Position numbers and translations under genes: made by a program. Shown one piece after another: positions 5,314-55,165 of a DNA stretch of 64,000 nt; within the stretch, counting starts at the first letter, position 1, and every line of letters starts with the position of its first letter. Origin of the DNA: Candidatus Latescibacterota bacterium. Lineage in GTDB: Bacteria; Latescibacterota; UBA2968; UBA8231. The stretch covers positions 6,368,001-6,432,000 of the forward strand of contig OZ241867.1 in NCBI GenBank assembly GCA_965203175.1, in the 5' to 3' direction. The notes below the pieces were generated by a model that was not told where the DNA came from, ran no database searches, and saw only the letters and a list, made by a program, of their open reading frames with translations.

Positions 5314-7728
5314 TCATCGGGTCGGAATGACGAAATAGGGCGTCTGGATGCGCCAGTCCGGCCAGCGGGTGGCCTGCTCATCGCCGAAGAGGAACTCAAA
5401 GAACACCATCAGATCCCAAGCGGGATCAATGGAATCACCGGGAATCACCGCTCGATGCCCATCGCCGTCGGAGTGCATATCGACGCGGTCGAAGTCCAAG
5501 GCTTGATGGGCGATTCGGTGATAGCAGCGGACGGTGGATGGGGTTGGAGATTCGCACCGGATGCGAAGCTCTAGGTCGCGCCCCGCCGTAGCGCAGTCCG
5601 GAGGAGCGAAGGTCACCGTCAGCGGATCGAGATGGACGTCACCGCCGGGGAAAGGTCCAAAGTCGGCGGACGAAATCTCCGGCTGTTCCGCAATGAGCGC
5701 GTCAATAGCCGCCAAGTCGCGCTCGATCACAACCAAATCGTCCCGCCACTGACCTACGTGGCCCTTCTCGCGAAACCCAAAAACCAAATCGTCGCAGTAA
5801 GCATCCTCAGCCGCCGCAAACAAGGCCGCCCAATGGTCTTGTGCCTGGAGCAAGTGTTGTTGGACGGAGGACAGGCGACGGACCTCACCAGCCTGACGGT
5901 GAAAAGCGAGATGGACGGCTGCCAGTTGGCGGTAGGCATGGTACTCAGCCAAATGGGCGAACAAGGTGAAGTCGAGCAGCGTATGGCGCAGCTCCGGCTC
6001 CGTCGAATCTCCACCGAGGCCGGTTAGCAAGCCGCGCACCTGAGCGGCTAGCTGGCGCAGGTAATGGGCGACATGGGGCGGCGTCCATTTGCCGCAGAGC
6101 CGATTGCCCAACGCGTCTTCCACGTACTCGTCGATGCCGTAAAACCGAGTCGGGTCGCTGGGCTCGACCTGCGCGTCCTCCGCCAAGCTACGACCGGCGA
6201 AGCGCTCGGGCCAGAAGGTCCAAAGGCTAGCCGAATGCTGCAACACCACGGTGAGCAGAGGCAAAATCTGACCGCCGATGCTATAGAGGTCTTCCACGGA
6301 AGCGGCGGCAGTACCAAAGCGATGACTCAACTCCCGCTGCCAGACTTCAGAAGAAGCGTCCGGGTCGTAGCCCAAATGACCAAACAACAAGTAAAACATC
6401 CAGTGCCGCCGATGCTCCTCAGCGTGAGACCGAAAGGCAGGATCGGTGTTAGCTGACCACGGCGGCTGCTCGCCGCGGACCCCTTTGTTCGTCAGCGGTG
6501 CCATCACCTCAAAACCATCGCCGCCAAAGGTGCAGGAGCCAGCGAACCGCCGCACCCATTCGGGATCGGCCCACAGCAGCACGCGCTGGCTTCCCGCGCT
6601 CCACAGACGGTGGATCAGCGCAAAGGAGCGCGGCTTGCGCAGCAAATCCCAAGTGCCGTAGCGGCGGTAGTTTTTCTGGTCGAACTGCTGAATGGCCGGC
6701 ATGGGATAGGGCATGCCCAAATGTTCGCACCAGTGCTTGGTAGAAATCACCATGTCCGGAACGAGCTTCTGGGCGAGTTCGATAGTGTCGTCGGCAAGCC
6801 CCTTGGCGCGCAGGTCTAAGCGAATGGGACGACCGCATTCGGCAATGGCGCGAAACTGCGGCTCGTAGTACTCGGCTTGGCGATCCTCGGCAACGCCGGA
6901 CTCGTAGTTCATGCGAAACTGAACCCCGTCAATCTCTGGACATGAGGCGAGCAAGCGCGCGAGTCCAGCCGCATTGTATTGCGCTCGGATCTCAGGCGTA
7001 AGCCCCTCCACCATAGAATCCCCGTAGTCCTGAGCGTGCTGAGACCAGACTCCAAAGGTGAAGTGCAGACCGCGCTGACGAGTCCACTCGGCGATGCGAA
7101 TCAGCATGTCCAGACGCCGGGCACACTGTTCTGCGGTAAAACCGATGGGACGGACCTGGGGAAATTCGGGGACTTCCAACAGAAAGGGGTACGGTGGAGA
7201 CAAGTAAGCAATCTGGTGGCCGAAAGTGAGACTCAGATTGTTGTAGCGGCAGCGCGCCAGCCGCTCCAAGTACTCGTCCCAAAACTCCTCGTCGTAGAAC
7301 CAAGCCTCTTCGAGCCGACGGTTGCAGAGGAACAGTTGCATGCTGCGCCAAGCCAAGTGCGGCGATTGGATCGCAGGAGCGATTGCCGCGCAAACGTCAA
7401 CTCCTGGCGGGGCCAGTTCGACGGCGCGCGCCGCTTCGAACAATGCGTACATCAGGCCGCGTTCATCCCTGCCGCAAATGAGGAATCCGCCAGCAGCAAG
7501 ATGGTGGAGAACCAAAGATTCGGGTGCGTCGGGACAGCGCGCGCCAGCGCGAGCAAGGGCATCCTCCACGACCGACGACTGACCAGCTAGGCCGATGATG
7601 AAATCGGGATCTGGTCCGGGCGCGGCTGTGACCTCAACGGATTCCCCGCGCGTGCCGAGGGCGCGAGTCAACTCTTCCAACGCCCAGCGGGCGGCGCGGG
7701 GTAGCTCTGTGTCAACGACTAGATTCAT
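5314..7728 (-). CDS. Large hypothetical protein, probable glycoside hydrolase-like
   Basis: 804 aa; N-terminal 'PESLVL...GRDERGLMYAL' resembles the GH20/GH67 N-terminal domain, followed by a TIM-barrel-like region. Confidence 0.55.
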   Translation of the reverse strand: MNLVVDTELPRAARWALEELTRALGTRGESVEVTAAPGPDPDFIIGLAGQSSVVEDALARAGARCPDAPESLVLHHLAAGGFLICGRDERGLMYALFEAARAVELAPPGVDVCAAIAPAIQSPHLAWRSMQLFLCNRRLEEAWFYDEEFWDEYLERLARCRYNNLSLTFGHQIAYLSPPYPFLLEVPEFPQVRPIGFTAEQCARRLDMLIRIAEWTRQRGLHFTFGVWSQHAQDYGDSMVEGLTPEIRAQYNAAGLARLLASCPEIDGVQFRMNYESGVAEDRQAEYYEPQFRAIAECGRPIRLDLRAKGLADDTIELAQKLVPDMVISTKHWCEHLGMPYPMPAIQQFDQKNYRRYGTWDLLRKPRSFALIHRLWSAGSQRVLLWADPEWVRRFAGSCTFGGDGFEVMAPLTNKGVRGEQPPWSANTDPAFRSHAEEHRRHWMFYLLFGHLGYDPDASSEVWQRELSHRFGTAAASVEDLYSIGGQILPLLTVVLQHSASLWTFWPERFAGRSLAEDAQVEPSDPTRFYGIDEYVEDALGNRLCGKWTPPHVAHYLRQLAAQVRGLLTGLGGDSTEPELRHTLLDFTLFAHLAEYHAYRQLAAVHLAFHRQAGEVRRLSSVQQHLLQAQDHWAALFAAAEDAYCDDLVFGFREKGHVGQWRDDLVVIERDLAAIDALIAEQPEISSADFGPFPGGDVHLDPLTVTFAPPDCATAGRDLELRIRCESPTPSTVRCYHRIAHQALDFDRVDMHSDGDGHRAVIPGDSIDPAWDLMVFFEFLFGDEQATRWPDWRIQTPYFVIPTR

Positions 7729-7803: not shown

Positions 7804-8232
7804 CTAAGCGAGTGGATGGCGCCAGCGCAGGTCGGGAAAGCGGCTGAAGTCGCGGTCGGTAGTGATCCATTCGCTGCCTGACTCAATGGCTAGGGCGGCC
7901 AAATACGCATCCTGTACCAGATTCCCCTTGCACTGCACCTGCCGACAAAGCCGGGTAAATATCTCCCAATGGCGTGCGCCGGGCGCGATGGCTACGCGAT
8001 TGGGACGATCGCGGATTTGGTCTGCGAAAGTCAGCGCTGTGTCCAGCGGGCTGGGCGGATCGAAGATGCGGCTGTGAGTAGCGATGCGGAGAAAGCTAGA
8101 CAACACGAGGTCGGTCAGGCCATAGGCTTGGGGGCCGTGGATCAGTTCTTCCAACCAAGCCCGATAAGCTGGGTGATCGGGGATTTCCTCGCGGTGGGCG
8201 TAGAGCAGGACATTGACGTCAAGCAGGACCAC
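7804..8232 (-). CDS. vapC: Type II toxin VapC (PIN domain)
   Basis: LLDVNVLLYA, GNLVQDAYLAALA and TTDRDFSRF motifs; overlaps the upstream antitoxin gene. Confidence 0.92.
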   Translation of the reverse strand: MVLLDVNVLLYAHREEIPDHPAYRAWLEELIHGPQAYGLTDLVLSSFLRIATHSRIFDPPSPLDTALTFADQIRDRPNRVAIAPGARHWEIFTRLCRQVQCKGNLVQDAYLAALAIESGSEWITTDRDFSRFPDLRWRHPLA

Positions 8233-8470
8233 TATCCCGCTCCATCAGGTCGAGGAGGGACGAAGTATCGTCCAAATCGACGCCGGGCTGCACGCCTCGC
8301 CCTTTGAAGGTTTTCAAAGGGACGCGAGTCTGTGGCCGAGTAGCCTCCGTGCGCGCCAAGGCTTCGCGCAGCGCATCCTCGATCACCGCCTTGAGTGTGC
8401 GACCCGTCTGCGCAGCGTGTTGCTTGGCCTCTAACAGCAACTGGTCATCCAACTGAATCGTCGTTCTCAT
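8219..8470 (-). CDS. vapB: Type II antitoxin VapB (ribbon-helix-helix)
   Basis: MRTTIQLDDQLLLEAK...GVDLDD; true ATG at 8470 (the ORF track extends it too far). Confidence 0.88.
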   Translation of the reverse strand: MRTTIQLDDQLLLEAKQHAAQTGRTLKAVIEDALREALARTEATRPQTRVPLKTFKGRGVQPGVDLDDTSSLLDLMERDSGPA

Positions 8471-10786: not shown

Positions 10787-11422
10787 ATGCAAGCGAATCT
10801 CGTGACGTTGATCCGAATATTCCTAGTGTTCCTAGTAATTGGGTTGTACAAAGTCAACACCATCGCCTGCGGTATAGCGGTTTTGCTGACCATCGCCACC
10901 CTCTACATGGACGCGCTCGACGGCATCATCGCCCGCCGCCTCGGCATCGAATCCGATCTAGGCGCAATGTTCGACATCGCTGGGGATCGCATCGTCGAGA
11001 ACGTCTTCTGGGTCTATTTTGCGTCGATCGGCATGGCCAGCGTCTGGGCTGCGGCCATCGTCGTCGCCCGCAGTTTTCTCATCGACTGGCTGCGGACGCT
11101 CGCCTTTATAGATGCAGGCCAAACTGCCTTCGGCATGCGCAGCCGCTGGGCAAAGGCACTCGTGAGCTCTCGCTTCAGTCGGGCGCTCTACGGCTTTACC
11201 AAGGCGGTCGTGTTTGTCTATCTGGGCGCTGTACTGCTGATTCAGTCCGGCCAAGCCGAGTACGGCTGGTCAATCGGAGTGTCCACAGAATTGCTGCTGC
11301 TGATCGGCCAAGCAATCGTCTGGCTGACAGTGGTGATGTGCCTGGTGCGAGGCGTCCCGGTAATATGGGACAGCCAGGATGTTCTGTTTCGCAAAATGTT
11401 TCCCGGCCTGCTACGAGATTAG
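10787..11422 (+). CDS. CDP-alcohol phosphatidyltransferase family protein
   Basis: DALDGIIARR...GAMFDIAGDR signature; hydrophobic; GGAGG RBS. Confidence 0.9.
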   Translation: MQANLVTLIRIFLVFLVIGLYKVNTIACGIAVLLTIATLYMDALDGIIARRLGIESDLGAMFDIAGDRIVENVFWVYFASIGMASVWAAAIVVARSFLIDWLRTLAFIDAGQTAFGMRSRWAKALVSSRFSRALYGFTKAVVFVYLGAVLLIQSGQAEYGWSIGVSTELLLLIGQAIVWLTVVMCLVRGVPVIWDSQDVLFRKMFPGLLRD

Positions 11423-43120: not shown

Positions 43121-43153
43121 CCGCCACATCATTTGAAACCTGTCGATTTCAAG

Positions 43154-43723
43154 ATGAAGACGCTTAAAGAGATCGCCCATGTCCAGATGGGCCTCGCCTT
43201 TCGTTCCCGCATTGAGCCGGAAGTGGATGGGACTGTTGCAGTCATTCAGATGCGCGACCTGACCGAGGATAATAAACTGAGCCATCGCAATCTGATCACT
43301 ATTAAAATGGATAGCCTTAGCGACCGCCATTTGGTAAAACGCAGAGATTTGATTTTTCGCTCTAGAAGGCAGACCACTACGGCGGCAATCATTGATACGA
43401 AAATTGGTCCGGCGGTTGTCGCGGCTCCGCTGTTGAGAATCCGGGTTACGAGCAAGCATGTTCTCCCGGAGTACCTGTGCTGGTTCGTCAACCAGCCGTC
43501 AGCCCAAGCGTTTTTGCACAGTAGAGCTACTGGAACGGCGATGACGGTGATCGGCAAATCCGCTCTCGATGATTTGCAAGTGCCCCTACCTCCTCTCGAA
43601 ACTCAGAAGCAAATCGTCGCCTTGGCCGATTTATCGAATAAGGAGCAGAAGCTGATGAGGGAGCTGGCGGCGAAGAAGGAAAAACTAGTCAACGGGATTC
43701 AGATGCGATTGGCAACCAAATAG
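43154..43723 (+). CDS. Half-size type I restriction specificity subunit (single TRD)
   Basis: MKTLKEIA..MG, DLIFRSR, PEYLCWF and VPLPPLETQKQI; directly upstream of hsdM. Confidence 0.8.
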   Translation: MKTLKEIAHVQMGLAFRSRIEPEVDGTVAVIQMRDLTEDNKLSHRNLITIKMDSLSDRHLVKRRDLIFRSRRQTTTAAIIDTKIGPAVVAAPLLRIRVTSKHVLPEYLCWFVNQPSAQAFLHSRATGTAMTVIGKSALDDLQVPLPPLETQKQIVALADLSNKEQKLMRELAAKKEKLVNGIQMRLATK

Positions 43724-43735
43724 GAGCAGCGAGAT

Positions 43736-45400
43736 ATGAGCGATCAGATCCAACAGAAAGATATCAACAGCGCCGCTTGGGCAGCCTGCGACACCTTTCG
43801 CGGGGTGATGGATGCGGCGGGATACAAAGACTATATCCTCGTGATGCTATTCCTCAAATACATCTCCGATGTCTGGAAAGACCACTACGAGGAATATCAA
43901 GAAAGATACGGCGACAACGATGAGCGCATCCGGCGCAGGCTGAAAAACGAGCGCTTTGTCCTGCCAGAGGGCAGCAGCTTTTACGACCTCTATGAACGGC
44001 GCTCGGAAGCCAATGTTGGTGAGCTCATCAATATCGCGCTGGAGGCGATTGAAACGGAGAACAAAGAGAAGCTGGAAGATGTTTTCCGCAATATAGACTT
44101 CAACAGCGAGGCCAATCTCGGCAAAACCAGAGATCGCAATCGCCGCCTGAAAATGCTGCTGGAAGATTTCAACAAGCCCGAATTGAACATGAGCCCCAGC
44201 CGAGTTTCGGAAGACGTCATCGGCAATACCTATATATATCTGATCGAGCGTTTCGCCTCTGACGCCGGAAAAAAAGCCGGCGAATTCTACACGCCGCACA
44301 AAGTGTCCGAACTGGTGGCGAAACTGTGCTCTCCCAAGCCAGGTGCCCGCATCTGCGACCCCGCCTGCGGTTCCGCCGGACTGCTGATTGAGGCGGCCCG
44401 GCTAGTGGGCGGTAAGGACTACTCCCTGTACGGCATGGAGGTGAACGGCAGCACCTGGGCACTGGCGCGGATGAACATGTTTTTGCACGGTGCCGACTCC
44501 GCCCGCATCGAATGGTGCAATACCCTTACCTCCCCGACACTGGTGGAAAACAACCAACTGATAAAGTTCAATAACGTGGTCGCCAATCCGCCGTTTTCGC
44601 TCGACAAGTGGGGTGCAGAAGATGCCGACGCGGACCCGTACAACCGCTTTTGGCGCGGGGTGCCGCCCAAATCCAAGGGCGATTACGCTTTCATCAGTCA
44701 CATGATAGAAGCGGCTTTGGAAAAAGAGGGGAGGGTCGCGGTGGTGGCTCCGCACGGCGTTTTGTTTCGGGGCGCTGCTGAAGGGCGCATTCGCAAACAA
44801 TTGATTGAAGAAAACCTGCTCGACGCCGTCATCGGCTTGCCCGGCAATCTGTTCCCTACGACCTCAATACCGGTGGCCATTTTGGTCTTTGACCGCTCGC
44901 GTGAGCAAGGGGGCGTGAATGGGCACCGCAAAGACGTTCTGTTTGTCGATGCAAGCCGCGAATATCAAGCGGGCAAGAATCAAAACACCTTGCTGGACGA
45001 GCACCTCGAAAAGATCACCGCTGCTTATGAAAAACGTGAAGATGTGGATAAATACGCCCACCTCGCCACCTTTGAAGAAATCGTGGAAAACGACTTCAAC
45101 CTGAATATTCCGCGCTATGTGGACACCTTTGAGGAAGAAGAGGAGATTGATATTGACGCGGTGGGTAGGGAGATCGATCAATTGGAAAAGGAATTGAGTG
45201 TGGTGCGTGGAGCGATGGGGAAGTTGTTGAAGGGGATCGACCGCGAGGGTGGGCTTGATCGGTTATTCCAATCTTGGACGGATGAGGGCGATGCAGACGA
45301 ACAGCGGGAGACGCTTGAGCATCTCATTAAGGCGCTGGATGAAAACCGGCCGGCCGACCGCAAGCTCTTTCCAAAGGAACAGAAGGGGAAGAGTTGGTGA
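43736..45400 (+). CDS. hsdM: Type I R-M methyltransferase HsdM with antitoxin-like C-terminal extension
   Basis: GEFYTP, DPACGSAG, ANPPF, PHGVLFRG and NLNIPRYV; about 50 extra residues after the usual C-terminus. Confidence 0.93.
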   Translation: MSDQIQQKDINSAAWAACDTFRGVMDAAGYKDYILVMLFLKYISDVWKDHYEEYQERYGDNDERIRRRLKNERFVLPEGSSFYDLYERRSEANVGELINIALEAIETENKEKLEDVFRNIDFNSEANLGKTRDRNRRLKMLLEDFNKPELNMSPSRVSEDVIGNTYIYLIERFASDAGKKAGEFYTPHKVSELVAKLCSPKPGARICDPACGSAGLLIEAARLVGGKDYSLYGMEVNGSTWALARMNMFLHGADSARIEWCNTLTSPTLVENNQLIKFNNVVANPPFSLDKWGAEDADADPYNRFWRGVPPKSKGDYAFISHMIEAALEKEGRVAVVAPHGVLFRGAAEGRIRKQLIEENLLDAVIGLPGNLFPTTSIPVAILVFDRSREQGGVNGHRKDVLFVDASREYQAGKNQNTLLDEHLEKITAAYEKREDVDKYAHLATFEEIVENDFNLNIPRYVDTFEEEEEIDIDAVGREIDQLEKELSVVRGAMGKLLKGIDREGGLDRLFQSWTDEGDADEQRETLEHLIKALDENRPADRKLFPKEQKGKSW

Positions 45401-45846
45401 GCCAGATCGTACTGCTCGATAGCGGCCCCCTCGGTCTGGTAACCAGTCCAAGCGGCTCGGGAGAGGCTGCGGAATGTAGGGACTGGTTTCAGCAAGTGGA
45501 AGCTGGAGACTCGATGGTAATGGTGCCAGAGATCGCCGACTACGAGGTTCGGCGCGAGTTGCTTCGGGCGGGCAAAATTAGAGGCATTGAGCGGCTTGAC
45601 GCACTTATCGCTCAGGTCAATTACTTGCCTATTACGACCAATGCCATGCGCCGAGCCGCAGCCTACTGGGCCGATGCTCGTCAGCAGGGTCGGCCAACGG
45701 CAGCCGATCCGGCCCTTGACGGCGATGTAATATTGGCGGCGCAAGCGGCAACGCTGAACTGGACGGATGTGGTTGTGGCGACGACGAACGTAAGGCATCT
45801 ATCTCGTTTCGTTCAGGCAGAGATATGGTTCGACATTGCTGGATGA
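45397..45846 (+). CDS. PIN-domain nuclease/toxin
   Basis: VLLDSGPLG, PEIADYEVRRELLR, LDGDVILAAQA and ATTNVRHL; GTGA overlap with hsdM. Confidence 0.85.
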   Translation: MSQIVLLDSGPLGLVTSPSGSGEAAECRDWFQQVEAGDSMVMVPEIADYEVRRELLRAGKIRGIERLDALIAQVNYLPITTNAMRRAAAYWADARQQGRPTAADPALDGDVILAAQAATLNWTDVVVATTNVRHLSRFVQAEIWFDIAG

Positions 45847-45916
45847 GGCCGTAAAGCAGGCCACGGGAAGACGGCCCGTAACACTTCCTCGAACGAAGCC
45901 AAGGTCGCATAAAAAC

Positions 45917-46309
45917 ATGAGACGACGAGAAGCCCGCCTCATTTTGGGTGTGGGTGAGGACGCTACCACAGAAACGATAAAGTCAGCGTTTCGCCGCTAT
46001 GCCCTCAAGCACCACCCCGATCGCAATCCGGACAACCCGGTTGCCGAAGAGGCATTTAAGGAGGGTGCTCATGCCTATCGCTTGCTGACGGGACAGGAGG
46101 GGACCGATCTGGATGAATTGTTAGAGCAATTTGAGGATATAGAGCAGTCCTTCGACAAAATGAAGCAGTCCTTTGACGAATTTGGAAAAAGTATGTCAGA
46201 AGGACTCGACCGGATCGAAACCAAGATGTCCCGCATGTTTAAGTGGACCATCTTCTTGATGATTTTCACGACCCTATCGTTGGTTCTTCTCATTCTGTTC
46301 GGTTTCTGA
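45917..46309 (+). CDS. J-domain protein with coiled coil and C-terminal membrane anchor
   Basis: ILGV...IKSAFRRYALKHHPDRNP...AEEAFK (HPD motif); hydrophobic tail. Confidence 0.8.
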   Translation: MRRREARLILGVGEDATTETIKSAFRRYALKHHPDRNPDNPVAEEAFKEGAHAYRLLTGQEGTDLDELLEQFEDIEQSFDKMKQSFDEFGKSMSEGLDRIETKMSRMFKWTIFLMIFTTLSLVLLILFGF

Positions 46310-46336
46310 TTTTGCTGGTGGCTGAGCTATTTCCCG

Positions 46337-46572
46337 TGGATCGCTCCGTTATTCACATCCAATATATTGGAGAGAAAGTGCTGCTCCCACAGAGAGAATT
46401 CGAACGACTGGTGGAACTGGCACAGCAATATGAAGAGATTATCGTGCGAAGACAGGAAGATGATGTGCCAATATGGGATATTATGCGCTTGGTGGAACAA
46501 AGTGGCGCATTTGGCTTCTAGAAAGAGGAAGAGGAAGACATTTACTCCTCCGAGGACGGAGAGCCGGTGTGA
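46337..46572 (+). pseudogene. Degraded antitoxin-like gene with internal stop codon
   Basis: ...MRLVEQSGAFGF-TAG(46519)-KEEEEDIYSSEDGEPV-TGA; the frame continues coherently past the TAG; 5' boundary uncertain. Confidence 0.55.
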
Positions 46573-46584
46573 CGCGCCCAACGC

Positions 46585-46629
46585 GAATACGCAAAAACCT
46601 ATTGGCAGGCATACAAGGATTCCCAGTGA
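46585..46629 (+). pseudogene. C-terminal remnant of a RelE-like 'addiction module killer' toxin
   Basis: EYAKTYWQAYKDSQ-TGA overlaps the ATG of the antidote gene (TGATG). Confidence 0.45.
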
Positions 46630-46955
46630 TGAGAAAAATGAGAAAATACCACGATTACCTGATGGAAGAACTATCTGACCGTGAGAAGGCCATCTCCTAC
46701 CTTCAAACGGCATTGGAAGAATACCGAATAGACGGGCACAGTATAGCTCTTTATCTCGCATTGAATCAGGCTGTTGAAGCACAGGGCGGCGTTCAAGAAT
46801 TCGCGCTGAGAACCCACAGCGATCCACAGGCCGTTTCGGATGCCTTGTTGAGCAAGAATGAGACGCAGATTACTAGAGTAATAGCAAGACTGTCAGAGGA
46901 GGATTGCGAGAGCAGCGATTCGGAAATTCCGAAGTGTTCAAAGGGAAGGTCGTAG
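46629..46955 (+). CDS. Putative addiction-module antidote protein (HI1420-like)
   Basis: YHDYLMEELSD...YLQTALEE...ALNQAVEAQGGV; divergent C-terminus. Confidence 0.7.
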   Translation: MRKMRKYHDYLMEELSDREKAISYLQTALEEYRIDGHSIALYLALNQAVEAQGGVQEFALRTHSDPQAVSDALLSKNETQITRVIARLSEEDCESSDSEIPKCSKGRS

Positions 46956-47380
46956 AGTGACTTTGAGTAGCAAAACGGCGAAAAATGAGACGTTGCCGAA
47001 AGGGTGGCGAAGAGTGAAATTGGGGGAATTGTGTGAAAAAACCTTGGGAGGAGGCACTCCTTCAACTGCAAATACTGACTATTGGAAAGGCCATATTCCA
47101 TGGATGACTAGTGCTGATATTGTGAATGCAAAAACTATAAAACCGAGAAAATATATTACTGATAAGGCGATGGCTAATTCAGCTACAAATCTGATTCCAA
47201 AAAATAATATTATAGTCGTAACGCGAGTTGGACTAGGTAAGGCCGTCAAAAATGAAATGGATATTTGTATCAGCCAAGATTCTCAGGGTTTAATATTGAA
47301 GCAATCTGTCATACCAGACTTTTTGATTCATTCACTAATTGAAAAAATAAAAGTTTTCAAATTGACAAGCCAAGGTTCTA

Positions 47381-48610
47381 GGTCGTAGCTTGTGATTATC
47401 TCAGTCCAACCGGACAAAGTCGCATGAGTTCCAGAGAGGAATAGAGATGATCGGCGATGCCGGCGGCCATCGCCGGACTCCTGTGTTGCCATCGGCCTTC
47501 TTGCGTCGGCTGTCGCAAGGACCGATGCGGATGATGAAAATTGTAGCGCACCGCACCAATCCAACTGAGGGCATCATGCCGATCCGTCCGACGCGAAAAG
47601 TGCAGGGTTTTGCGCCCCTTTCGTGCGTTGCGCATCCGATCGGTCAGGTTGAACCGCTCAATGGCGCTGGTGTTGGCTTTCGTCCAGCCCAAATCGGCTA
47701 CGACTTGGGCCAATTTGCCCTTGCCAAAGATCGGTCGGACTTCCATCTGTTGGATCCGCCCCCCTTGCCGATGTTTGACAATCTGGGCATACACCAGCGC
47801 TTGGGGGATCCGCACCACCGGGGCCGGGGGTCGGCCGCGGGGGCCTCGACGCGGCACGGGATAGGCCCGACCAAAGGTAGCTACAATCGCTTCGCGATAG
47901 GTCGGTTCGCCATCGGTAAACAGCGCCGGCAGCCCCGCCTTGGCAGCCAGCCGCTCGGCCGCGTCGGCCACCACTTGGTGAATCGTGCGGGTCGTACGGC
48001 GTCCAGGCACCAGCGATACCAGCAGTTTGCTCTGCGGATCCAAGCTGTTGGCATCCCAATAATCCCCCCGTTCACTCGGATCGTCCATCGGCGTCATGTG
48101 CCGTTGTTTTTTGGCCACATACGACCATTTCTCATCAAACTGGAGGGCCGCTGGATGCACGTTACGAACCAGCCGATCATGCAGTTGATAGCTGATCCGG
48201 CCCCCCACGCGCAGCAGACGACCAACCGCATCCTTGGATACCCCCACCAAGCGCGCCGTGGCATTCAAGCCACAGGCACTATCCAGATGCTCCATCACCG
48301 ACACGGCTTGCGCCTCGCTGATCTTGCAGTTAAACAACGCCGTGCCTTTGCGCTCGCTAAATTCCTCGCCGCAGCACCGACAGCGCAGATAGCGAATCCG
48401 ATCCGCCCCATAGATCTTGCGCACCCGCAGGTTGGCTTGGCCGCGTTGGCCGTAGGTCTTGCATTGGGTATTGAGACAGCACAAATTCTCCAACGCTGGT
48501 CTTGGCTCTTGCATCTTTATCCCTCCTTGCTTGGCGGTTTGGAGAGATAAATAAAGAGCACAAGGCCAGCACTAGACCTAACTGGTCTGAGATAATCTCA
48601 CGTTACGACC
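47381..48610 (-). mobile_element. IS1-family insertion sequence, 1230 bp
   Basis: 28-bp imperfect terminal inverted repeats GGTCGTA..GATTATCTCAG (47381-47408 and 48583-48610); 8-bp target duplication AGGTTCTA (47373-47380 and 48611-48618). Confidence 0.92.
47396..48514 (-). CDS. IS1-family DDE transposase (single ORF)
   Basis: Zinc ribbon (CLNTQC..CRCC), HTH, FDEKW, TDG and SAIERFN; AAGGAGG RBS. Confidence 0.88.
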   Translation of the reverse strand: MQEPRPALENLCCLNTQCKTYGQRGQANLRVRKIYGADRIRYLRCRCCGEEFSERKGTALFNCKISEAQAVSVMEHLDSACGLNATARLVGVSKDAVGRLLRVGGRISYQLHDRLVRNVHPAALQFDEKWSYVAKKQRHMTPMDDPSERGDYWDANSLDPQSKLLVSLVPGRRTTRTIHQVVADAAERLAAKAGLPALFTDGEPTYREAIVATFGRAYPVPRRGPRGRPPAPVVRIPQALVYAQIVKHRQGGRIQQMEVRPIFGKGKLAQVVADLGWTKANTSAIERFNLTDRMRNARKGRKTLHFSRRTDRHDALSWIGAVRYNFHHPHRSLRQPTQEGRWQHRSPAMAAGIADHLYSSLELMRLCPVGLR

Positions 48611-49442
48611 AGGTTCTACTATTCAGGGGATAACAAAAAAACGACTCCTTGATATTGAAATCCCCCTACCACCGCTCTATCAGCAAAAAGCCATCGCCTC
48701 CCTATTGGAAACATGGGACACGGCGATTGAGAAAACCGAAGCACTGATCGCGGCGAAGGAGAAGCAATTTAAGTGGTTGCTGAAAACTCTTATCAGCGAT
48801 CAGCAAGATAATCCTGAATGGCGAAAAGTGAAGTTGGGTGAGTTTGGAACCTTCTACAAAGGGAAAGGAATCACAAAAGCCGACTTGGTTGAGGACGGCA
48901 TCCCGTGCCTACGTTACGCCGAAATCTACACGAAATACGATGGTATAGTTAATGAGTTGACCTCCTCCGTCAGTCCAGATGCAGCTACTAAGGCTGCTCC
49001 GATTCAGTCTGGCGACATCATCTTCGCTGCTTCCGGGGAAACGACTGCCGAAATCGGGAAGACCATCGCCTTCGTTGGCCACTACCCGGCTGTTGCTGGC
49101 GGTGATACCGTAATTTTTCGTGATCACGGGCAGGAACCAGCCTATTTGGCATACGTGCTCAATTCCTCAGATGCAGCAAGGCAAAAGGCCCGTCTCGGCA
49201 AAGGTCAATCTGTCGTCCATATTCATGTCCCGGAGCTTTTTCAGGTTGAGGTGTCTCTTCCTCCTCTACATGAACAACGCAAAATCGTCAAAATTTTGGC
49301 CACTTGGAACACGGCGATTGAGAAAACCAAAGCCCTATCCGAGCAATACCACACTCAAAAACGCGGATTGATGCAGAAGTTGCTGACGGGGAAATGGAAG
49401 ATCCAAATATGACTGACTTATTTTTCATAAGGAGATTGAAAC

Positions 49443-50627
49443 ATGGTTTATGAGATTGATAAAGATAAAGATGGTATGCCGACGTGTGGTTTTGCTGCTG
49501 AATCTGCAAGAGCAGGTAGCAAGGTTAAAATGATTTATAGGGATTTTATAACTCCGTTGAATCGACCTCTGTTTTATGAAACACTTGAAAGTTTAGGAAG
49601 TAGTTATTTACCAGACGGTATGTCACCTGGATGTATTGAAACTATGATTGGAGTTGTTAGAAGAGATGGAAGTGCAACTGTTTATATAAATGAAGATATT
49701 GAAATCACAATGAAAATGCGGGCGGCTAATTCAATAAAGAAAGGTCAAGGAGTTAGAAAATCTGATATTGCAGATATAAAAGAATTGAGTACAAACATTG
49801 TAATCCCTGACGATTGTGGATTCTTTTTTATTTTTCATGTTGGATGGATGCGCTGTTGTTATTACGATTTTAGTACAAGCATTCCTGATATTGTTTTGGA
49901 AAAAAGTAAACTACCTGAATCTATACGTGTGAGAAGTTACCACATCCCTGAAATACTGGGCAGATGTTACCGATCAGTTTTCTTTCGCGAACGTCTTTAT
50001 CATACAGATCACGAGTGGGATCTGATGTTTAAAAACGGATGGTTTCCCTTTTTTGGATTAAATGAAGATCATTTGAAAAAACTTAAAAATTTTTGGCAGC
50101 AAGAATGGGAAACAGACGACATTGTATCCGATGTAGCCAAAGATTTGAAAAGGAGATTGCCAAAACTGCTTGAAAGCTGGGAAGAATATGAGGGAATAGC
50201 TGAATATCATTCAGAAGACTTGAAAGATGCAGTTGAAGATTTTATGAGAGATGATCATAGAAGGTGTGGGCGAAATTTATATATAAAAATCGAAGGCATC
50301 ATGCGTTCTGACTACATGACTTCAAAGTATCGTGAAACCATCTTACAAGAAGAAGAAATTGAATCTCCGAATACGGATAAATTGAGGAAGTTTGTGACGA
50401 CTATTGACGACGTAAGCGGCTTATTATTACCAGACAGATTCAAAGAGTATTTGAAGAAAGTTTATTTTTCTCAAACTAATATCAGAAATGAAAACGCTAG
50501 ACCTGCAAGAAATTCTACTGCACATGGGTATGCGGGGAACTGGACAGAAGAAACATCGGTTGTTGCCTTTTTGATTGTTGAACAGATTATGCGATATATT
50601 ATGGAAAGACAATGGGAATTAGAATAA
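49443..50627 (+). CDS. AT-rich hypothetical protein with C-terminal HEPN-like RxxxxH motif
   Basis: AGGAG RBS; 'KIEGIMR' followed by 'RNSTAHG'; markedly AT-rich DNA. Confidence 0.65.
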   Translation: MVYEIDKDKDGMPTCGFAAESARAGSKVKMIYRDFITPLNRPLFYETLESLGSSYLPDGMSPGCIETMIGVVRRDGSATVYINEDIEITMKMRAANSIKKGQGVRKSDIADIKELSTNIVIPDDCGFFFIFHVGWMRCCYYDFSTSIPDIVLEKSKLPESIRVRSYHIPEILGRCYRSVFFRERLYHTDHEWDLMFKNGWFPFFGLNEDHLKKLKNFWQQEWETDDIVSDVAKDLKRRLPKLLESWEEYEGIAEYHSEDLKDAVEDFMRDDHRRCGRNLYIKIEGIMRSDYMTSKYRETILQEEEIESPNTDKLRKFVTTIDDVSGLLLPDRFKEYLKKVYFSQTNIRNENARPARNSTAHGYAGNWTEETSVVAFLIVEQIMRYIMERQWELE

Positions 50628-50674: not shown

Positions 50675-50717
50675 TTTACTCAATATACTGAGTAAAATTA
50701 CTCAAAGAATTGAGCAA
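50675..50717. promoter_or_regulatory. Two tandem inverted repeats (operator-like) at the start of the AAA gene
   Basis: TTTACTCA-N6-TGAGTAAA and TTACTCA-N6-TGAGCAA with 22-bp periodicity. Confidence 0.65.
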
Positions 50718-51924
50718 AATGGCCTTCATCAGACCCCAAGCGTCCGAGCTAGCCCGGCGCTTAAAAGAACCCCGACGGTTCATTCAAGTCGTCTCGGGAG
50801 CAAGGCAGGTCGGCAAAACAACCCTTGCCCTGCAAGTTGCCGAGCGGAGCAAACTACCCTATCACGTTGCCAGTGCCGACGAGCCAACCCTGCGCGGTGC
50901 CGGGTGGATTGAATCGCAATGGGAAGAGGCCCGGCTACTGGCCGACAGCGCCAAAAGAAAAGGGGCCTTGCTCGTATTGGATGAGGTACACAAAGTTCCG
51001 CATTGGGCTGAAACGGTCAAGCATCTCTGGGATGAAGACACCCGCAAGAAAACATTGGTAAAAACCGTATTGCTCGGCTCCGCCCCGCTCCTAATCGGCA
51101 GGGGACTGACTGAAAGCCTTGCCGGCCGCTTTGAAATCCTGCACATGCCGCACTGGAGCTTTCCCGAGATGCGGACGGCCTTCGGATGGGATCTGCAACA
51201 ATATCTCTTTTACGGTGCCTATCCGGGTGCCGCGCCTTTGATAAAACAGCCGTTCCGCTGGTCGCGCTATATCCTAGACTCGCTCATCGAAACGACCGTA
51301 GCCCGCGACGTGCTCCTGCTCTCCCGCGTTGACAAACCGGCATTGCTCCGGCGGCTGTTTGAACTAGGCTGCGCCTATTCGGGGCAAATCCTTTCCTACA
51401 CAAAAATGACGGGCCAGCTTCAGGATGCAGGAAATACGACGACGCTTGCCCACTACCTCGACCTGCTCGCGGGTGCTGGCGTGCTCACCGGCTTGCCTAA
51501 ATACGCCGGCGACACCGCGCGGCGGCAGAGATCAAGTCCCAAGTTTCAAGTCTTCAACACTGCGCTGCTAACCGCTCAGTCCGGCATGACTCAGGCGGAG
51601 GCATTTGCCGACCGCGAGTTTTGGGGCCGCTTAACCGAATCCGCAGTAGGCGCACACCTGCTCAACGCATCCGTCGGCGGAGAGTGTGAACTCTTTTATT
51701 GGCGGGAGCGCAACCGCGAAGTGGATTTTGTCGTGAAAAGAGGAAGGAAACTGCTGGCCATAGAAGTAAAAAGCGGACGCACCACCATTTCACTTCCCGG
51801 CATGGAAGCGTTCGCCAACTCCTTCAAACCAGACCGCCTGCTAATAGTCGGCACCGGCGGAATCTCTCTCGAACGATTTCTCTCAAAGCCCGTAGGATAT
51901 TGGATAGATCAGTCAGACCAATAA
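50710..51924 (+). CDS. AAA_14 ATPase with DUF4143 / PD-(D/E)XK C-terminus (COG1373)
   Basis: GARQVGKT, LVLDEVH, ESLAGR and EVDFV...IEVK; alternative ATG start at 50719. Confidence 0.88.
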   Translation: MSKMAFIRPQASELARRLKEPRRFIQVVSGARQVGKTTLALQVAERSKLPYHVASADEPTLRGAGWIESQWEEARLLADSAKRKGALLVLDEVHKVPHWAETVKHLWDEDTRKKTLVKTVLLGSAPLLIGRGLTESLAGRFEILHMPHWSFPEMRTAFGWDLQQYLFYGAYPGAAPLIKQPFRWSRYILDSLIETTVARDVLLLSRVDKPALLRRLFELGCAYSGQILSYTKMTGQLQDAGNTTTLAHYLDLLAGAGVLTGLPKYAGDTARRQRSSPKFQVFNTALLTAQSGMTQAEAFADREFWGRLTESAVGAHLLNASVGGECELFYWRERNREVDFVVKRGRKLLAIEVKSGRTTISLPGMEAFANSFKPDRLLIVGTGGISLERFLSKPVGYWIDQSDQ

Positions 51925-51973: not shown

Positions 51974-54900
51974 ATGCCCACCTTCCTCTTCAGCGAAAAA
52001 CACCTCTCCCAGATCCCCGCTCTACAACAACTAATCAACCTAGGCTACCAATATCTCCCCCCCACCCAAGCAATGACTGAGCGCGGCAGTCGCGCCTCCA
52101 ACGTCCTACTAGAAAACATCCTGCGCGACCAACTCAAAAAAACAAACCGCATCCGCTACAAAGGCGACGAATACCTATTCAGCGAGGAGAACATCCAGTC
52201 CGCCATCCAGAAACTCAAAACCGTCCAATACGACGGCCTGCAAAAAACAAACGAAGCAATCTACGACCTAATAACTCTTGGCACGGCACTTGAACAAACC
52301 ATCGAAGGCGATTCCAAAAGTTTCACCCTGAACTACATCGACTGGAAAAACCCCGCCAACAACGCATTCCACGCCGTAGCAGAATTCTCCGTTGAACGCG
52401 CCCGCAGCACAGAGACCGCAAGACCCGACATCGTCCTGTTCGTAAACGGCATCCCCCTTGTCGTGATCGAGTGCAAGTCCCCCGATACAGACGTAGAACA
52501 AGCGGTCTCTCAAATGATCCGCAACCAAGGAGACGAATACATCCCACGACTTTTCATATACGCACAATTTCTACTGGCCGTGAACAAAAACGAGGCCAAA
52601 TACGCAACAGTGGGCACTTCAAAAGAGTTCTGGAGCGTTTGGGACGAGTTGGAGGATGCTGAGCGCGACGTAAACGCCTGCATCAATAAAGCGCTTTCCA
52701 ATGACGACAAAGATGCCCTATTCTCCGGTGAATTCGCCTCGGCGCGGTCGCACTTTGATGCACTTGAGCGCAGCGGCGACCGACTGGTCACGGAACAGGA
52801 TCGCTGTCTTTACAGCTTGTGCCGACCCGACCGCCTGTTGGAGCTAATCTTCGGTTTTATAGTCTTTGAATCTGGCAGCAAAAAAATTGCCCGCTACCAG
52901 CAGTTCTTTCTGGTTCGTACCGCCATAAAGCGCATCAAGCAAAAAGACAACGAAGGTCGCCGCATGGGCGGTATCGTCTGGCACACGCAGGGTTCCGGGA
53001 AGTCCATCACTATGGTCATGCTGGTCCGCGCCTTGTCTTTAGACCCAGGGCTGGCCAGTCCGCGCATGATTCTGGTTACAGACCGCAAAGACTTGGACAA
53101 ACAACTGGGCAATACCTTCGCGGCCTGCAATCTGGACAAGGAGCGGGCAACATCCGGGCGCAATCTAATCAGACACATCAAAAACAGAGTCGGCATCATC
53201 ACCACGCTGATCAATAAGTTCGACAAGGCGCTTTCCGCTGAGAAATATGTAGATGATTCCGCCGATATTATCGTCCTCGTTGACGAAAGCCACCGCACCA
53301 ACTTCGGCTCCCTAGCAGCACGCATGAGACAAATGCTGCCCAATGCCTGCTTTATCGGCTTCACGGGAACGCCGCTGCTCAAACAAGAAAAGAACAGCTT
53401 TGCCCGATTCGGTAGTTTGATTGAACCCCATTATTCCGTCCGGCGAGCAATCGCGGACAAGGCGGTAGTCCCCTTGCTGTACGAAGGACGGCACGTGGAG
53501 ATGGAACAGAATCAGGCCGCCATTGACCTCTGGTTCGCTCGCCACACCGAAGACTTGGCAGACGAACAAAAAGCAGACCTAAAGCGAAAATACGCACGCG
53601 CCCGAGAGTTGAGTAAGACCGATCAAGTCGTCTATATGTGCGCGTTTGATATTAGCAGACACTTCCAGACCTCTTGGCAGAATACGGGATTTAAGGCCCA
53701 GCTTGTAGCGGACAGCAAGGCGACCGCGCTCAAGTATCGCGAATCGCTCAATGAAATAGGCGCAGTCTCATCAGAGGTCGTCATCTCCCCGCCGGATACG
53801 CGGGAGGGACATGAGGAAGTAGGCGCGGAGACGACAAATGAGGTGAACAAGTTCTGGGAAAAAATGATGGCCCGTTACGGCTCTGAAGATCAATACACCA
53901 AGCAAATCATCGCCCAGTTTAAGAACTCGGACAAACCGGAAGTTCTAATCGTCGTGGACAAACTCATCACGGGTTTTGATGCGCCTCGCAATACCGTGCT
54001 CTATCTGTGCCGCAAATTGCGCGAACACACGCTGCTCCAGGCGATTGCCCGCGTAAACCGCCTGCACGAGGGCAAGGAATTCGGCTATATCATCGACTAT
54101 GCCAATGTGTTGGGTGAACTGGACAAGGCGCTACACACGTATGACGCGCTCTCGGGCTTTGACGGCGACGACCTCGCGGATTTCCTGACCTCCATCCACG
54201 AAGAAGTGTCCAAGCTGCCGCAGCGCTACTCAGACCTGTGGGGCATCTTTAAGGAAATCAAAAACTCTCGCGATGAAGAACGCTACGAAGTGCTACTATC
54301 TGACGACGCAGTGCGGAATGAGTTTTACGAACGCCTCACTGAATACAGCAAGACCCTTGCCATCGCCCTTTCAGCCGAGCAGTTCATCATGCAAAGCGAC
54401 GAGGCGCAACTAAATCGCTACAAAAACGATCTCAAGCGTTTCCAGAAACTGAGATCAGCAGTCCAACTGCGCTACGCCGAAACCATTGATTACCGCGACT
54501 ACGAACCCCGGATTAAAAAACTGCTGAGCACGCATATTCAGGCCAACGAGGTCACTCGCTTAAACGATCCCGTGAATATGTTTGACGATAAGACCTTCTC
54601 TATGATCAAAGAGCAGCGCGGCGTCTATCAAGCCAAGACTACGGCGGCAAGAGCCGATATTATCGCCCATTCGGCCAAGCGCACAATCACTGAAAACATG
54701 GGCAAAGACCCAGCTTTCTACGAGAAATTCTCAAAGCTCATTCAAGACGCCATTGACGGTTTCAAGAATCAGCGGATATCAGACCTTGAGTATTTGCAAA
54801 AAGTGAGTGCCATCCGCGATGAGGTCGCCAACACCCAACGCGACGATGTCCCCGACTCCATCCGCGATAACGAGGAGGCCAGCGCGTATTTTGGGGCGAT

Positions 54901-55165
54901 CAAACCTTGTCTGACTGAGGTGGGTGAAAACCAAGTTGACTACGTCGCCGCAGAAACGGCGCTTGCCGTCAAAGGCGCGCTAGAAAAAAATTGGAAGGTG
55001 GACTTTTGGAACGATAGCGACGCACAAAACGCCGCAAAAAACGAGATGGATGATTTCTTTTACGACGTGGTAAAAGACGTGCATGGCATTGATTTATCGT
55101 CGGCACAGATGGACGAAATGATCAGCCAAACAATGAAGATCGCTAAATCCTGGAGACGCTCTTAA
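51974..55165 (+). CDS. hsdR: Type I restriction endonuclease subunit R
   Basis: RPDIVLFVNGIPL..IECK, WHTQGSGKS, DESHR, FTGTP, TGFDAP and QAIARVNR. Confidence 0.95.
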   Translation: MPTFLFSEKHLSQIPALQQLINLGYQYLPPTQAMTERGSRASNVLLENILRDQLKKTNRIRYKGDEYLFSEENIQSAIQKLKTVQYDGLQKTNEAIYDLITLGTALEQTIEGDSKSFTLNYIDWKNPANNAFHAVAEFSVERARSTETARPDIVLFVNGIPLVVIECKSPDTDVEQAVSQMIRNQGDEYIPRLFIYAQFLLAVNKNEAKYATVGTSKEFWSVWDELEDAERDVNACINKALSNDDKDALFSGEFASARSHFDALERSGDRLVTEQDRCLYSLCRPDRLLELIFGFIVFESGSKKIARYQQFFLVRTAIKRIKQKDNEGRRMGGIVWHTQGSGKSITMVMLVRALSLDPGLASPRMILVTDRKDLDKQLGNTFAACNLDKERATSGRNLIRHIKNRVGIITTLINKFDKALSAEKYVDDSADIIVLVDESHRTNFGSLAARMRQMLPNACFIGFTGTPLLKQEKNSFARFGSLIEPHYSVRRAIADKAVVPLLYEGRHVEMEQNQAAIDLWFARHTEDLADEQKADLKRKYARARELSKTDQVVYMCAFDISRHFQTSWQNTGFKAQLVADSKATALKYRESLNEIGAVSSEVVISPPDTREGHEEVGAETTNEVNKFWEKMMARYGSEDQYTKQIIAQFKNSDKPEVLIVVDKLITGFDAPRNTVLYLCRKLREHTLLQAIARVNRLHEGKEFGYIIDYANVLGELDKALHTYDALSGFDGDDLADFLTSIHEEVSKLPQRYSDLWGIFKEIKNSRDEERYEVLLSDDAVRNEFYERLTEYSKTLAIALSAEQFIMQSDEAQLNRYKNDLKRFQKLRSAVQLRYAETIDYRDYEPRIKKLLSTHIQANEVTRLNDPVNMFDDKTFSMIKEQRGVYQAKTTAARADIIAHSAKRTITENMGKDPAFYEKFSKLIQDAIDGFKNQRISDLEYLQKVSAIRDEVANTQRDDVPDSIRDNEEASAYFGAIKPCLTEVGENQVDYVAAETALAVKGALEKNWKVDFWNDSDAQNAAKNEMDDFFYDVVKDVHGIDLSSAQMDEMISQTMKIAKSWRRS

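Follow-up and report, generated by a model that had tools for sequence, protein, structure and literature searches.

The 64,000-nucleotide (nt) stretch of contig OZ241867.1 from Candidatus Latescibacterota bacterium, called the window below and supplying all position numbers, carries a chromosomal type I restriction-modification locus with the order half-hsdS, hsdM::tail, PIN, split hsdS, ATPase gene and hsdR. We are concerned here with hsdM, the gene of the methyltransferase subunit, which continues in frame into an antitoxin-type tail, and with the VapC-like PIN gene whose start overlaps the end of that tail. The features at this junction are the following (aa, amino acids; values after family names are E-values).

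43736..45238, + strand: HsdM proper, residues 1-501 (PF12161 3.3e-28, PF02384 5.8e-101, TIGR00497 4.4e-82)
45239..45400, + strand: antitoxin-type tail, in frame, residues 502-554 (DREGGL...RKLFPKEQKGKSW) and the stop codon
45381..45393, + strand: purine-rich stretch AGAAGGGGAAGAG within the final tail codons, 3-15 nt 5' of the PIN start
45397..45846, + strand: VapC-like PIN gene, 149 aa from GTG, with an alternative start TTG at 45394 (PF01850 2.4e-5)

A single open frame, 43736-45400 on the + strand, encodes 554 aa, that is, a complete HsdM (1-501) followed by a tail of 53 residues. The HsdM_N domain occupies residues 11-145 and N6_Mtase residues 158-469, and the TIGR00497 hsdM model matches residues 106-485. 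All three scores exceed the curated cut-offs, which are given in brackets: 99.4 bits for PF12161 (24.5), 338.3 for PF02384 (20.4) and 276.4 for TIGR00497 (242.75). The motifs DPACGSAG and VVANPPFS are intact, and N284, P285, P286 and F287 are invariant in the alignment. The protein thus has the domains, the AdoMet-binding and NPPF motifs and the operon context with hsdS and hsdR that define a type I HsdM. In the structure model, its C-terminal helix spans residues 473-503 and the linker after this helix is flexible. The stop codon of the fused frame (TGA, 45398-45400) overlaps the GTG of the PIN gene (45397-45399) as GTGA, and the purine-rich stretch at 45381..45393, from a reading of the sequence, is likely the ribosome-binding site for coupled translation of PIN. 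On the + strand between hsdM and PIN, a weak consensus scan gave no terminator-like or promoter-like sites (its counts were not above those of shuffled sequences).

To see how the fusion is distributed, the 554 aa protein was searched in 132 genomes of the same class, 34 of which matched at E <= 1e-100. These contain 27 orthologous hsdM places (85-100% identity), and the other places are paralogues with 40-64% identity. The native C-terminus, '...GIRR*' or '...GIKRA*', lies 2-3 codons past I501 and is found in 14 of the 27, namely 3 of the window's genus and all 11 of the sister family. The full 53-residue tail is present in 8 (G000, G029, G020, G011, G013 and G002 in genus g1, G099 in g19 and G104 in g3). 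In two further orthologues the tail breaks off after 'DEGDA/DEDDA' and the frame continues into the J-domain gene. The remaining three (G022, G023, G009) end in 'IDRGEGLGQI(D/N)RI(S/P)TL*' before a two-gene module that we take to be a BrnT/BrnA-like pair; by nucleotide comparison this ending is ambiguous, as it may be left over from the first part of the tail or have nothing to do with it. In public protein collections the fusion forms seven clusters of 554-567 aa at 90% identity, one of them with 254 members.

An earlier sequence-only reading of the window had stated that HsdM attains its typical end before reading on, and that an intact PIN gene starts over the stop of the tail. The first statement agrees with the position of the native stop in the 14 orthologues, and the second with the GTGA overlap, the VapC-like fold and the conserved residues of PIN described below. 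That reading had also allowed that the fusion might be a one-off deletion product, which is at odds with 8 of 27 orthologous loci, three genera and seven public clusters, and had asked for the junction to be confirmed in other sequence data. The junction is not an assembly error, because it is shared by 8 species genomes and by the contigs of two further DNA runs: record 10 of run X3 covers 45209-45400 with 0 differences, and record 18 of run X4 covers 45143-45264.

Outside this lineage the fusion was not recovered. The HsdM family extends across many phyla, with 67-98% identity among the best 80 of 554 confirmed relatives in genome_contigs (600 matched stretches), and none of these 80 matches past residue 519 of 554. 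Among the best 80 of 444 relatives in metagenome_contigs, the tail occurs only in contig L139, in a shortened 'DEDDA-RIKA' form. From these results the fusion appears to be of single origin, within one family of the class. Long HsdM fusions that had seemed present in L174, L179 and L189 were dropped, as L179 and L189 have separate genes of 519-520 aa and 290 aa. Most of the sequencing runs in which the stretch occurs are metagenomes of sponges, corals and marine samples.

Substitution rates were estimated by the Nei-Gojobori method as the ratio of nonsynonymous to synonymous changes (dN/dS), comparing G104 with the seven other fused genes. The tail has dN/dS 0.08-0.13 at dS 0.74-1.17, close to the HsdM body with 0.06-0.08, and PIN has 0.24-0.32, or 0.16-0.42 across all pairs. 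Between close pairs the tail values are noisy, reaching 0.66 and resting on 2-7 changes. As judged by these rates, the fusion is old and under selection.

The tail, residues 502-554, reads DREGGLDRLFQSWTDEGDADEQRETLEHLIKALDENRPADRKLFPKEQKGKSW and matches no Pfam or NCBIfam family, even at E 10 or E 1. The earlier reading had likened it to stand-alone small proteins encoded upstream of this PIN subfamily, with the proposal to search with the tail alone and inspect the neighbours of its hits. When the 53 residues were used as the sole query, 73 proteins of 29-93 aa were obtained at E <= 0.01 (108 candidates), the best at 1e-25, together with 53 longer proteins (74 candidates). The resemblance thus goes far beyond chance: small proteins encoded directly 5' of related PINs have a conserved C-terminal part to which the tail is homologous. 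The family core is EQRET-x3-L-x3-L-x3-R-x3-RKLFP, and all 13 of its invariant residues are kept in the window (79 sequences). On the PIN side, 61 related genomes gave 15 matches at E <= 1e-10, of which 13 are full-length and 2 partial (L014, L015). All 13 full-length relatives have a tail-type open reading frame (ORF) ending at the PIN start; 8 of these ORFs contain EQRET, and 5 are diverged and end in '...NRSGHRKLF' or '...NRLSYRSRF'. The PIN of G104 is likewise preceded by the tail.

Regions N-terminal to the tail core differ completely between family proteins. Antitoxin-type heads occur among the relatives, such as a FitA-like ribbon-helix-helix (RHH) domain (P0097), the helix-turn-helix (HTH) domain HTH_17 (P0114) and an AF2212-like domain (P0113). 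Other heads are a HigA-like antidote fragment (PF21716, 7 clusters), an unassigned domain of ~110 aa (P0084, P0088), degenerate N-terminal fragments of HsdM (P0083, P0086) and the first 16 residues of HsdS (P0004, P0006, P0007). Homology and gene position together identify the tail as the toxin-binding segment of the antitoxin family that is cognate to this PIN subfamily. In the public proteins P0100 and P0104 (320-331 aa, no assigned family) the C-terminus is likewise the antitoxin tail, so HsdM is not the sole sizeable protein that carries it. A supposed likeness of these two proteins to the DNA glycosylase Tag was dropped, as neither Pfam nor a PDB sequence search supported it.

The PIN family is large: a cut-off of E <= 1e-3 gives 2122 representatives, of which 1242 remain at E <= 1e-10. 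In an alignment of 70 members, D8, E50 and W144 are invariant, and D108, D110, T129, N131 and H134 are at least 90% conserved; all eight residues are kept in 6 of 6 PINs behind fusions. The usual fourth acidic position is replaced by the conserved T129, N131 and H134, so that the PIN quartet is not canonical. The structure model has a confidence (pLDDT) of 96.2, and the solved structures closest to it are those of VapC toxins and FitB (E ~1e-5, TM-score 0.64-0.83), with one uncharacterised archaeal PIN-domain protein among the top 10. When the sequence was compared with the PDB, only noise was obtained (E > 1), that is, no sequence-similar solved chain. PF01850 is the sole family match, and no homology to PrrC or RloC was detected. 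From its modelled fold and acidic residues, the PIN protein looks like a functional VapC-type toxin.

Modelling the tail together with PIN had also been proposed beforehand, and this was done with PIN (70-row alignment) and the last 61 residues of the fusion (78-row alignment) in three runs and three controls. The interface score ipSAE was 0.60, 0.68 and 0.69 for tail and PIN (median 0.68) versus 0.00 in each control. The mark used for this score is reached by 58 of 80 solved complexes and by 2 of 110 mismatched pairs, counts that are approximate with custom alignments. The runs agreed in at least 82% of their contacts, with partner pLDDT of at least 70. In the predicted interface, HsdM residues 506-546 (13-53 of the tail piece) face PIN residues 8-10, 50-51, 110, 129-131 and 133-134, which make up the active-site cluster. 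The model supports binding of the tail over the active site of PIN. When the full fusion was modelled without PIN, the HsdM body was confident, the blocks from residue 501 on averaged 30-60, and residues 537-554 fell below pLDDT 50. Such low confidence is expected for a segment that folds on its partner.

We now turn to the surroundings in which the pair is found. Between hsdM and hsdS lies a cargo slot, filled differently in almost every genome, in which toxin-antitoxin modules are shuffled and which includes J-domain proteins and tail-PIN pairs. All hsdM variants diverge right after the codons GGG ATC (residues 500-501), which places the left boundary of the variable slot directly after codon 501. 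Other modules in the slot are, as we assume from their translations, RhuM-like, HigB/HigA-like and BrnT/BrnA-like. In four loci (L039, L044, L045, L047) the native hsdM stop lies inside a tandem motif, CGCAGAT(G/A)A, in ~3 copies; this motif may mark a recombination boundary of the slot, in which the cargo variants begin after codon 501. The ORF behind the native stop is in some genomes presumably GxxExxY-like.

Loss of parts of the pair was seen in several forms. Behind the fusion, PIN is intact with the GTGA overlap in 6 of 8 genomes. G013 and G099 have GTAG at the overlap, and their PIN is deleted after ~15 or 3 codons, with no PIN of the family elsewhere in these genomes at E <= 0.001 (94% and 93% complete); in the G013 tail, P also replaces the L of the invariant RKLFP. 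The distal tail and PIN were lost jointly in G021, G012 and the metagenome contig L139. In run X3 a joint from 45294 to 45905 leads from the middle of the tail into the J-domain gene, with PIN deleted, and in run X4 a joint from 45421 to 45817 marks a 395 nt deletion inside PIN. A full-length PIN without the tail was not found among the loci examined. This asymmetry, in which the tail occurs without PIN and PIN does not occur without the tail, is what a toxin-antitoxin pair predicts, and it also indicates that PIN is dispensable.

The unfused arrangement occurs in G054 of the sister family, whose HsdM has the native end, and in G023, whose HsdM has the ambiguous 'DRGEGLGQ' extension; neither HsdM has the full tail. 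Both genomes carry a separate tail protein of 156-169 aa and a PIN (63-68% identity) directly 5' of hsdS. In G104 the order is hsdM::tail, PIN, hsdS, and both junctions overlap. A deletion in the cargo slot probably gave rise to the fusion by joining codon 501 of hsdM to the toxin-binding segment of a separate antitoxin, since with a separate tail protein in the slot such a deletion would give exactly the fused form. Repeats in G002 (L020) were also recorded. The first 54 nt at the 5' end of hsdS occur twice (7316-7369 and 8277-8330, 94%), the duplicate heading an orphan 88 aa tail ORF without PIN, and the tail itself is duplicated over 158 nt (8059-8216 and 11027-11184, 87% identical to the fused copy). 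These repeats suggest cassette movement by recombination between repeated hsdS 5' ends.

With moderate confidence, we account for these observations by a VapBC-like pair whose antitoxin is made as an extension of HsdM, where HsdM::tail would neutralise the co-translated PIN, and the pair would ride on hsdM expression and penalise its loss. The antitoxin would have shed its own N-terminal domain and start codon and would be produced as the 53-residue C-terminal extension of HsdM. Half-hsdS, hsdM::tail and PIN would be transcribed as a single unit, and ribosomes ending the tail would re-initiate at the overlapping GTG, so that PIN would be made only behind HsdM::tail. The tail, flexible alone, would then fold round the PIN domain and block its acidic active site, and PIN would stay inert and bound to HsdM. 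As neutralisation would need an ongoing supply of HsdM::tail, loss or silencing of hsdM would be penalised and the locus stabilised. Stabilisation of the locus is most likely the main effect, and it is plausible that the tail-PIN pair makes the locus addictive.

Several points weigh against this explanation. The tail is kept without PIN in G013 and G099 (2 of 8), so it can persist partnerless, and the variant with a deletion inside PIN in run X4 indicates that the toxin is dispensable. A tail on a 57 kDa enzyme is unable to bind its own promoter and is presumably not quickly degraded, so the usual dynamics of toxin-antitoxin pairs may not hold here, and the pair may be disarmed. The complex model is a prediction rather than a measurement; no PDB chain is similar in sequence, though solved VapBC complexes share the fold, and part of the ipSAE may therefore reflect likeness to them. 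The full-length hsdS downstream is split by an insertion sequence (IS), which makes the state of the restriction system itself uncertain. Evidence for expression is weak: the RNA-library contigs of related strains (X15 over 45067-45282, which has 23 differences, and X16 over 45456-45632) are too short and divergent to bear on co-transcription and may stem from DNA carry-over.

It may also be considered that PIN acts as a sentinel of the methyltransferase, with the two tails per M2S assembly holding a PIN dimer that would be freed when HsdM is inhibited, degraded or no longer produced, for instance because of phage anti-restriction proteins, shut-off of the host or disappearance of the locus. 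We think this unlikely. If it were true, abortive infection or the killing of cells that lose the system would follow, the pair would stand as the first type II toxin-antitoxin system to be covalently linked to a restriction-modification enzyme, and the PIN genes of type I operons that seem to have no antitoxin would be accounted for.

We also doubt that the working antitoxin is a free peptide, made from an internal start (e.g. M494, ATG 45215) or by proteolytic clipping, with the fusion amounting to a shared frame only. On some contigs gene callers placed starts within the C-terminal part of HsdM, giving products of 61-118 aa (P0002, P0003, P0082); these agree with it, as do the flexible linker after helix 473-503 and a GGAG before ATG 45215. 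However, this GGAG stands just 2 nt from the ATG, the three products may be contig-end fragments, and M494 is conserved in tail-less orthologues too, which makes it an HsdM residue and not a dedicated start.

A guard of the PrrC kind, as the earlier reading had suggested, is improbable in our view. Here PIN would be held on the methyltransferase/restriction complex via two HsdM tails, and once freed by an Ocr/ArdA/Stp-type protein or by destruction of HsdM it would cut RNA and abort the infection. The nuclease gene does lie within a type I locus, between hsdM and hsdS, with its inhibitor covalently tied to HsdM, and the fused state has been kept under purifying selection over dS ~0.7-1.2 in three genera. 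PrrC and PARIS are described as guardians of restriction systems in the parts of the source drawn on here (PMC12707154). PIN-like genes have been reported, in passages of Matelska et al. 2017 (PMC5499597), as transcriptionally coupled to type I HsdM/HsdS/HsdR genes, in some cases without a recognisable antitoxin. Nevertheless, the sequence reveals neither a trigger nor a means of release, PIN is not homologous to PrrC, and it is lost in 2 of 8 fusions. In the sister family f2 the same operon likewise contains the pair, there with a separate antitoxin of 169 aa and an HsdM that ends natively. Moreover, in its relatives the tail is fused to many unrelated or junk N-termini, which fits 'any upstream ORF will do' over a dedicated sensor and argues that HsdM was merely the nearest host of an opportunistic fusion.

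It is hardly probable, finally, that PIN was permanently neutralised when the tail became fused to a stable enzyme in constant production, leaving a functionless, decaying relic: the deletion of PIN in G013 and G099 with its start changed to GTAG, the PIN-internal deletion in run X4 and the loss of tail end and PIN in G021, G012 and L139 would fit, but the retained PIN is under purifying selection (dN/dS 0.16-0.42 in all pairs) with 8 residues kept in 6 of 6 copies, tail dN/dS is ~0.1 at high divergence, and the fusion persists in three genera.

The favoured VapBC-like pair can be compared with VapBC and FitAB of known structure (F-plasmid and Shigella VapBC, 9h6a and 3tnd; FitAB, 2bsq). Common to them are a VapC-fold PIN (TM-score 0.7-0.8) with conserved acidic residues, an antitoxin gene 5' of the toxin with overlapping stop and start, and a C-terminal antitoxin segment over the toxin active site, which here is predicted. 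The RHH or HTH DNA-binding domains of VapB and FitA are found in tail relatives only, not in the window protein. There the antitoxin has HsdM in place of a DNA-binding N-terminal domain and, with no start of its own, is no separate protein, being the extension of a 501-residue methyltransferase in one ORF in 8 genomes. The window PIN differs further in having no detectable sequence similarity to solved chains, and in N131/H134 at the fourth acidic position.

PrrC, held latent by EcoprrI, resembles the window PIN in being a latent RNA-targeting nuclease, in the window a predicted one, whose gene lies inside a type I locus. PrrC is held in a non-covalent complex with the whole enzyme, whereas in the window the link is an inhibitor peptide covalently joined to HsdM. 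PrrC and PARIS (AriAB), as described in PMC12707154, share with the guard reading of the window the idea that a suicide response coupled to the restriction enzyme serves as a second line of defence, and the window PIN is unrelated to either PrrC or AriB.

The PIN operons of PMC5499597 have PIN toxin genes within type I operons, as in the window, and are described in its passages as poorly conserved in arrangement between close species. According to the same passages, toxin-antitoxin and restriction systems had not been shown to interact directly, and no fusion is reported there, whereas in the window the 'missing' antitoxin sits inside hsdM. Toxin-neutralising modules are known to recombine with different partner domains (Ernits et al. 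2023, PMC10440598, in part); the partner domain in the window differs from those described there in being a housekeeping-type defence enzyme and no regulator. No description of an HsdM-antitoxin fusion was found in full-text literature searches, the hits of which were judged by titles and abstracts.

Toxin-antitoxin and restriction-modification systems are often neighbours, and here the link between them lies in one polypeptide and is kept by selection in several species. This gives a testable question, whether the tethered antitoxin merely stabilises the locus or the toxin reports the state of the enzyme. For annotation the case is a warning: where a PIN gene seems to have 'no antitoxin', the gene before it may encode one as a hidden extension.

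The other features of the locus are listed below.

43133..43723, + strand: half-size hsdS, 196 aa, one target-recognition domain (Pfam Methylase_S E 3.1e-12); ends 12 nt 5' of hsdM
45836..46309, + strand: J-domain protein with a hydrophobic C-terminus (PF00226 3.8e-16); neighbouring cargo outside the tail-PIN pair
46243-46521: 92 aa ORF, no family match
46473-46955: 160 aa ORF, no toxin gene preceding
46957..47388, + strand: 5' part of full-length hsdS (Methylase_S 2.9e-12); transposase gene directly 3'
47396..48514, - strand: IS1-family transposase gene that splits hsdS (PF03400 1.3e-6)
48705..49412, + strand: 3' part of full-length hsdS (Methylase_S 2.4e-10)
49443-50627: 394 aa ORF between hsdS and the AAA_14/DUF4143 gene, no family, sub-threshold PoNi_C match (E 0.005)
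50710..51924, + strand: AAA_14/DUF4143 ATPase (PF13173 1.2e-22, PF13635 8.9e-29), cargo between hsdS and hsdR
51974..55165, + strand: hsdR, 1063 aa, frame fully open, with HSDR_N, SWI2_SNF2, T1R_D3-like and T1RH-like_C domains

The half-size hsdS has 84-93% identity to its relatives in 5 loci of the same genus and 70% in family f2, and it adjoins hsdM in 6 of 6 relatives' loci compared over the full length. With the full-length hsdS split by the IS, the half-size gene may serve as the working specificity subunit. The hsdR product has 93-96% identity to its relatives over the full length. The order asparaginase, RidA-like gene, half-hsdS, hsdM is common to the window, G029, G020, G011, G002 and G023. 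We take the 160 aa ORF to resemble the partner of a HigB-like toxin gene found in G002 and G090. The J-domain gene (45836-46309) recurs in the slot across fused, native and truncated loci.

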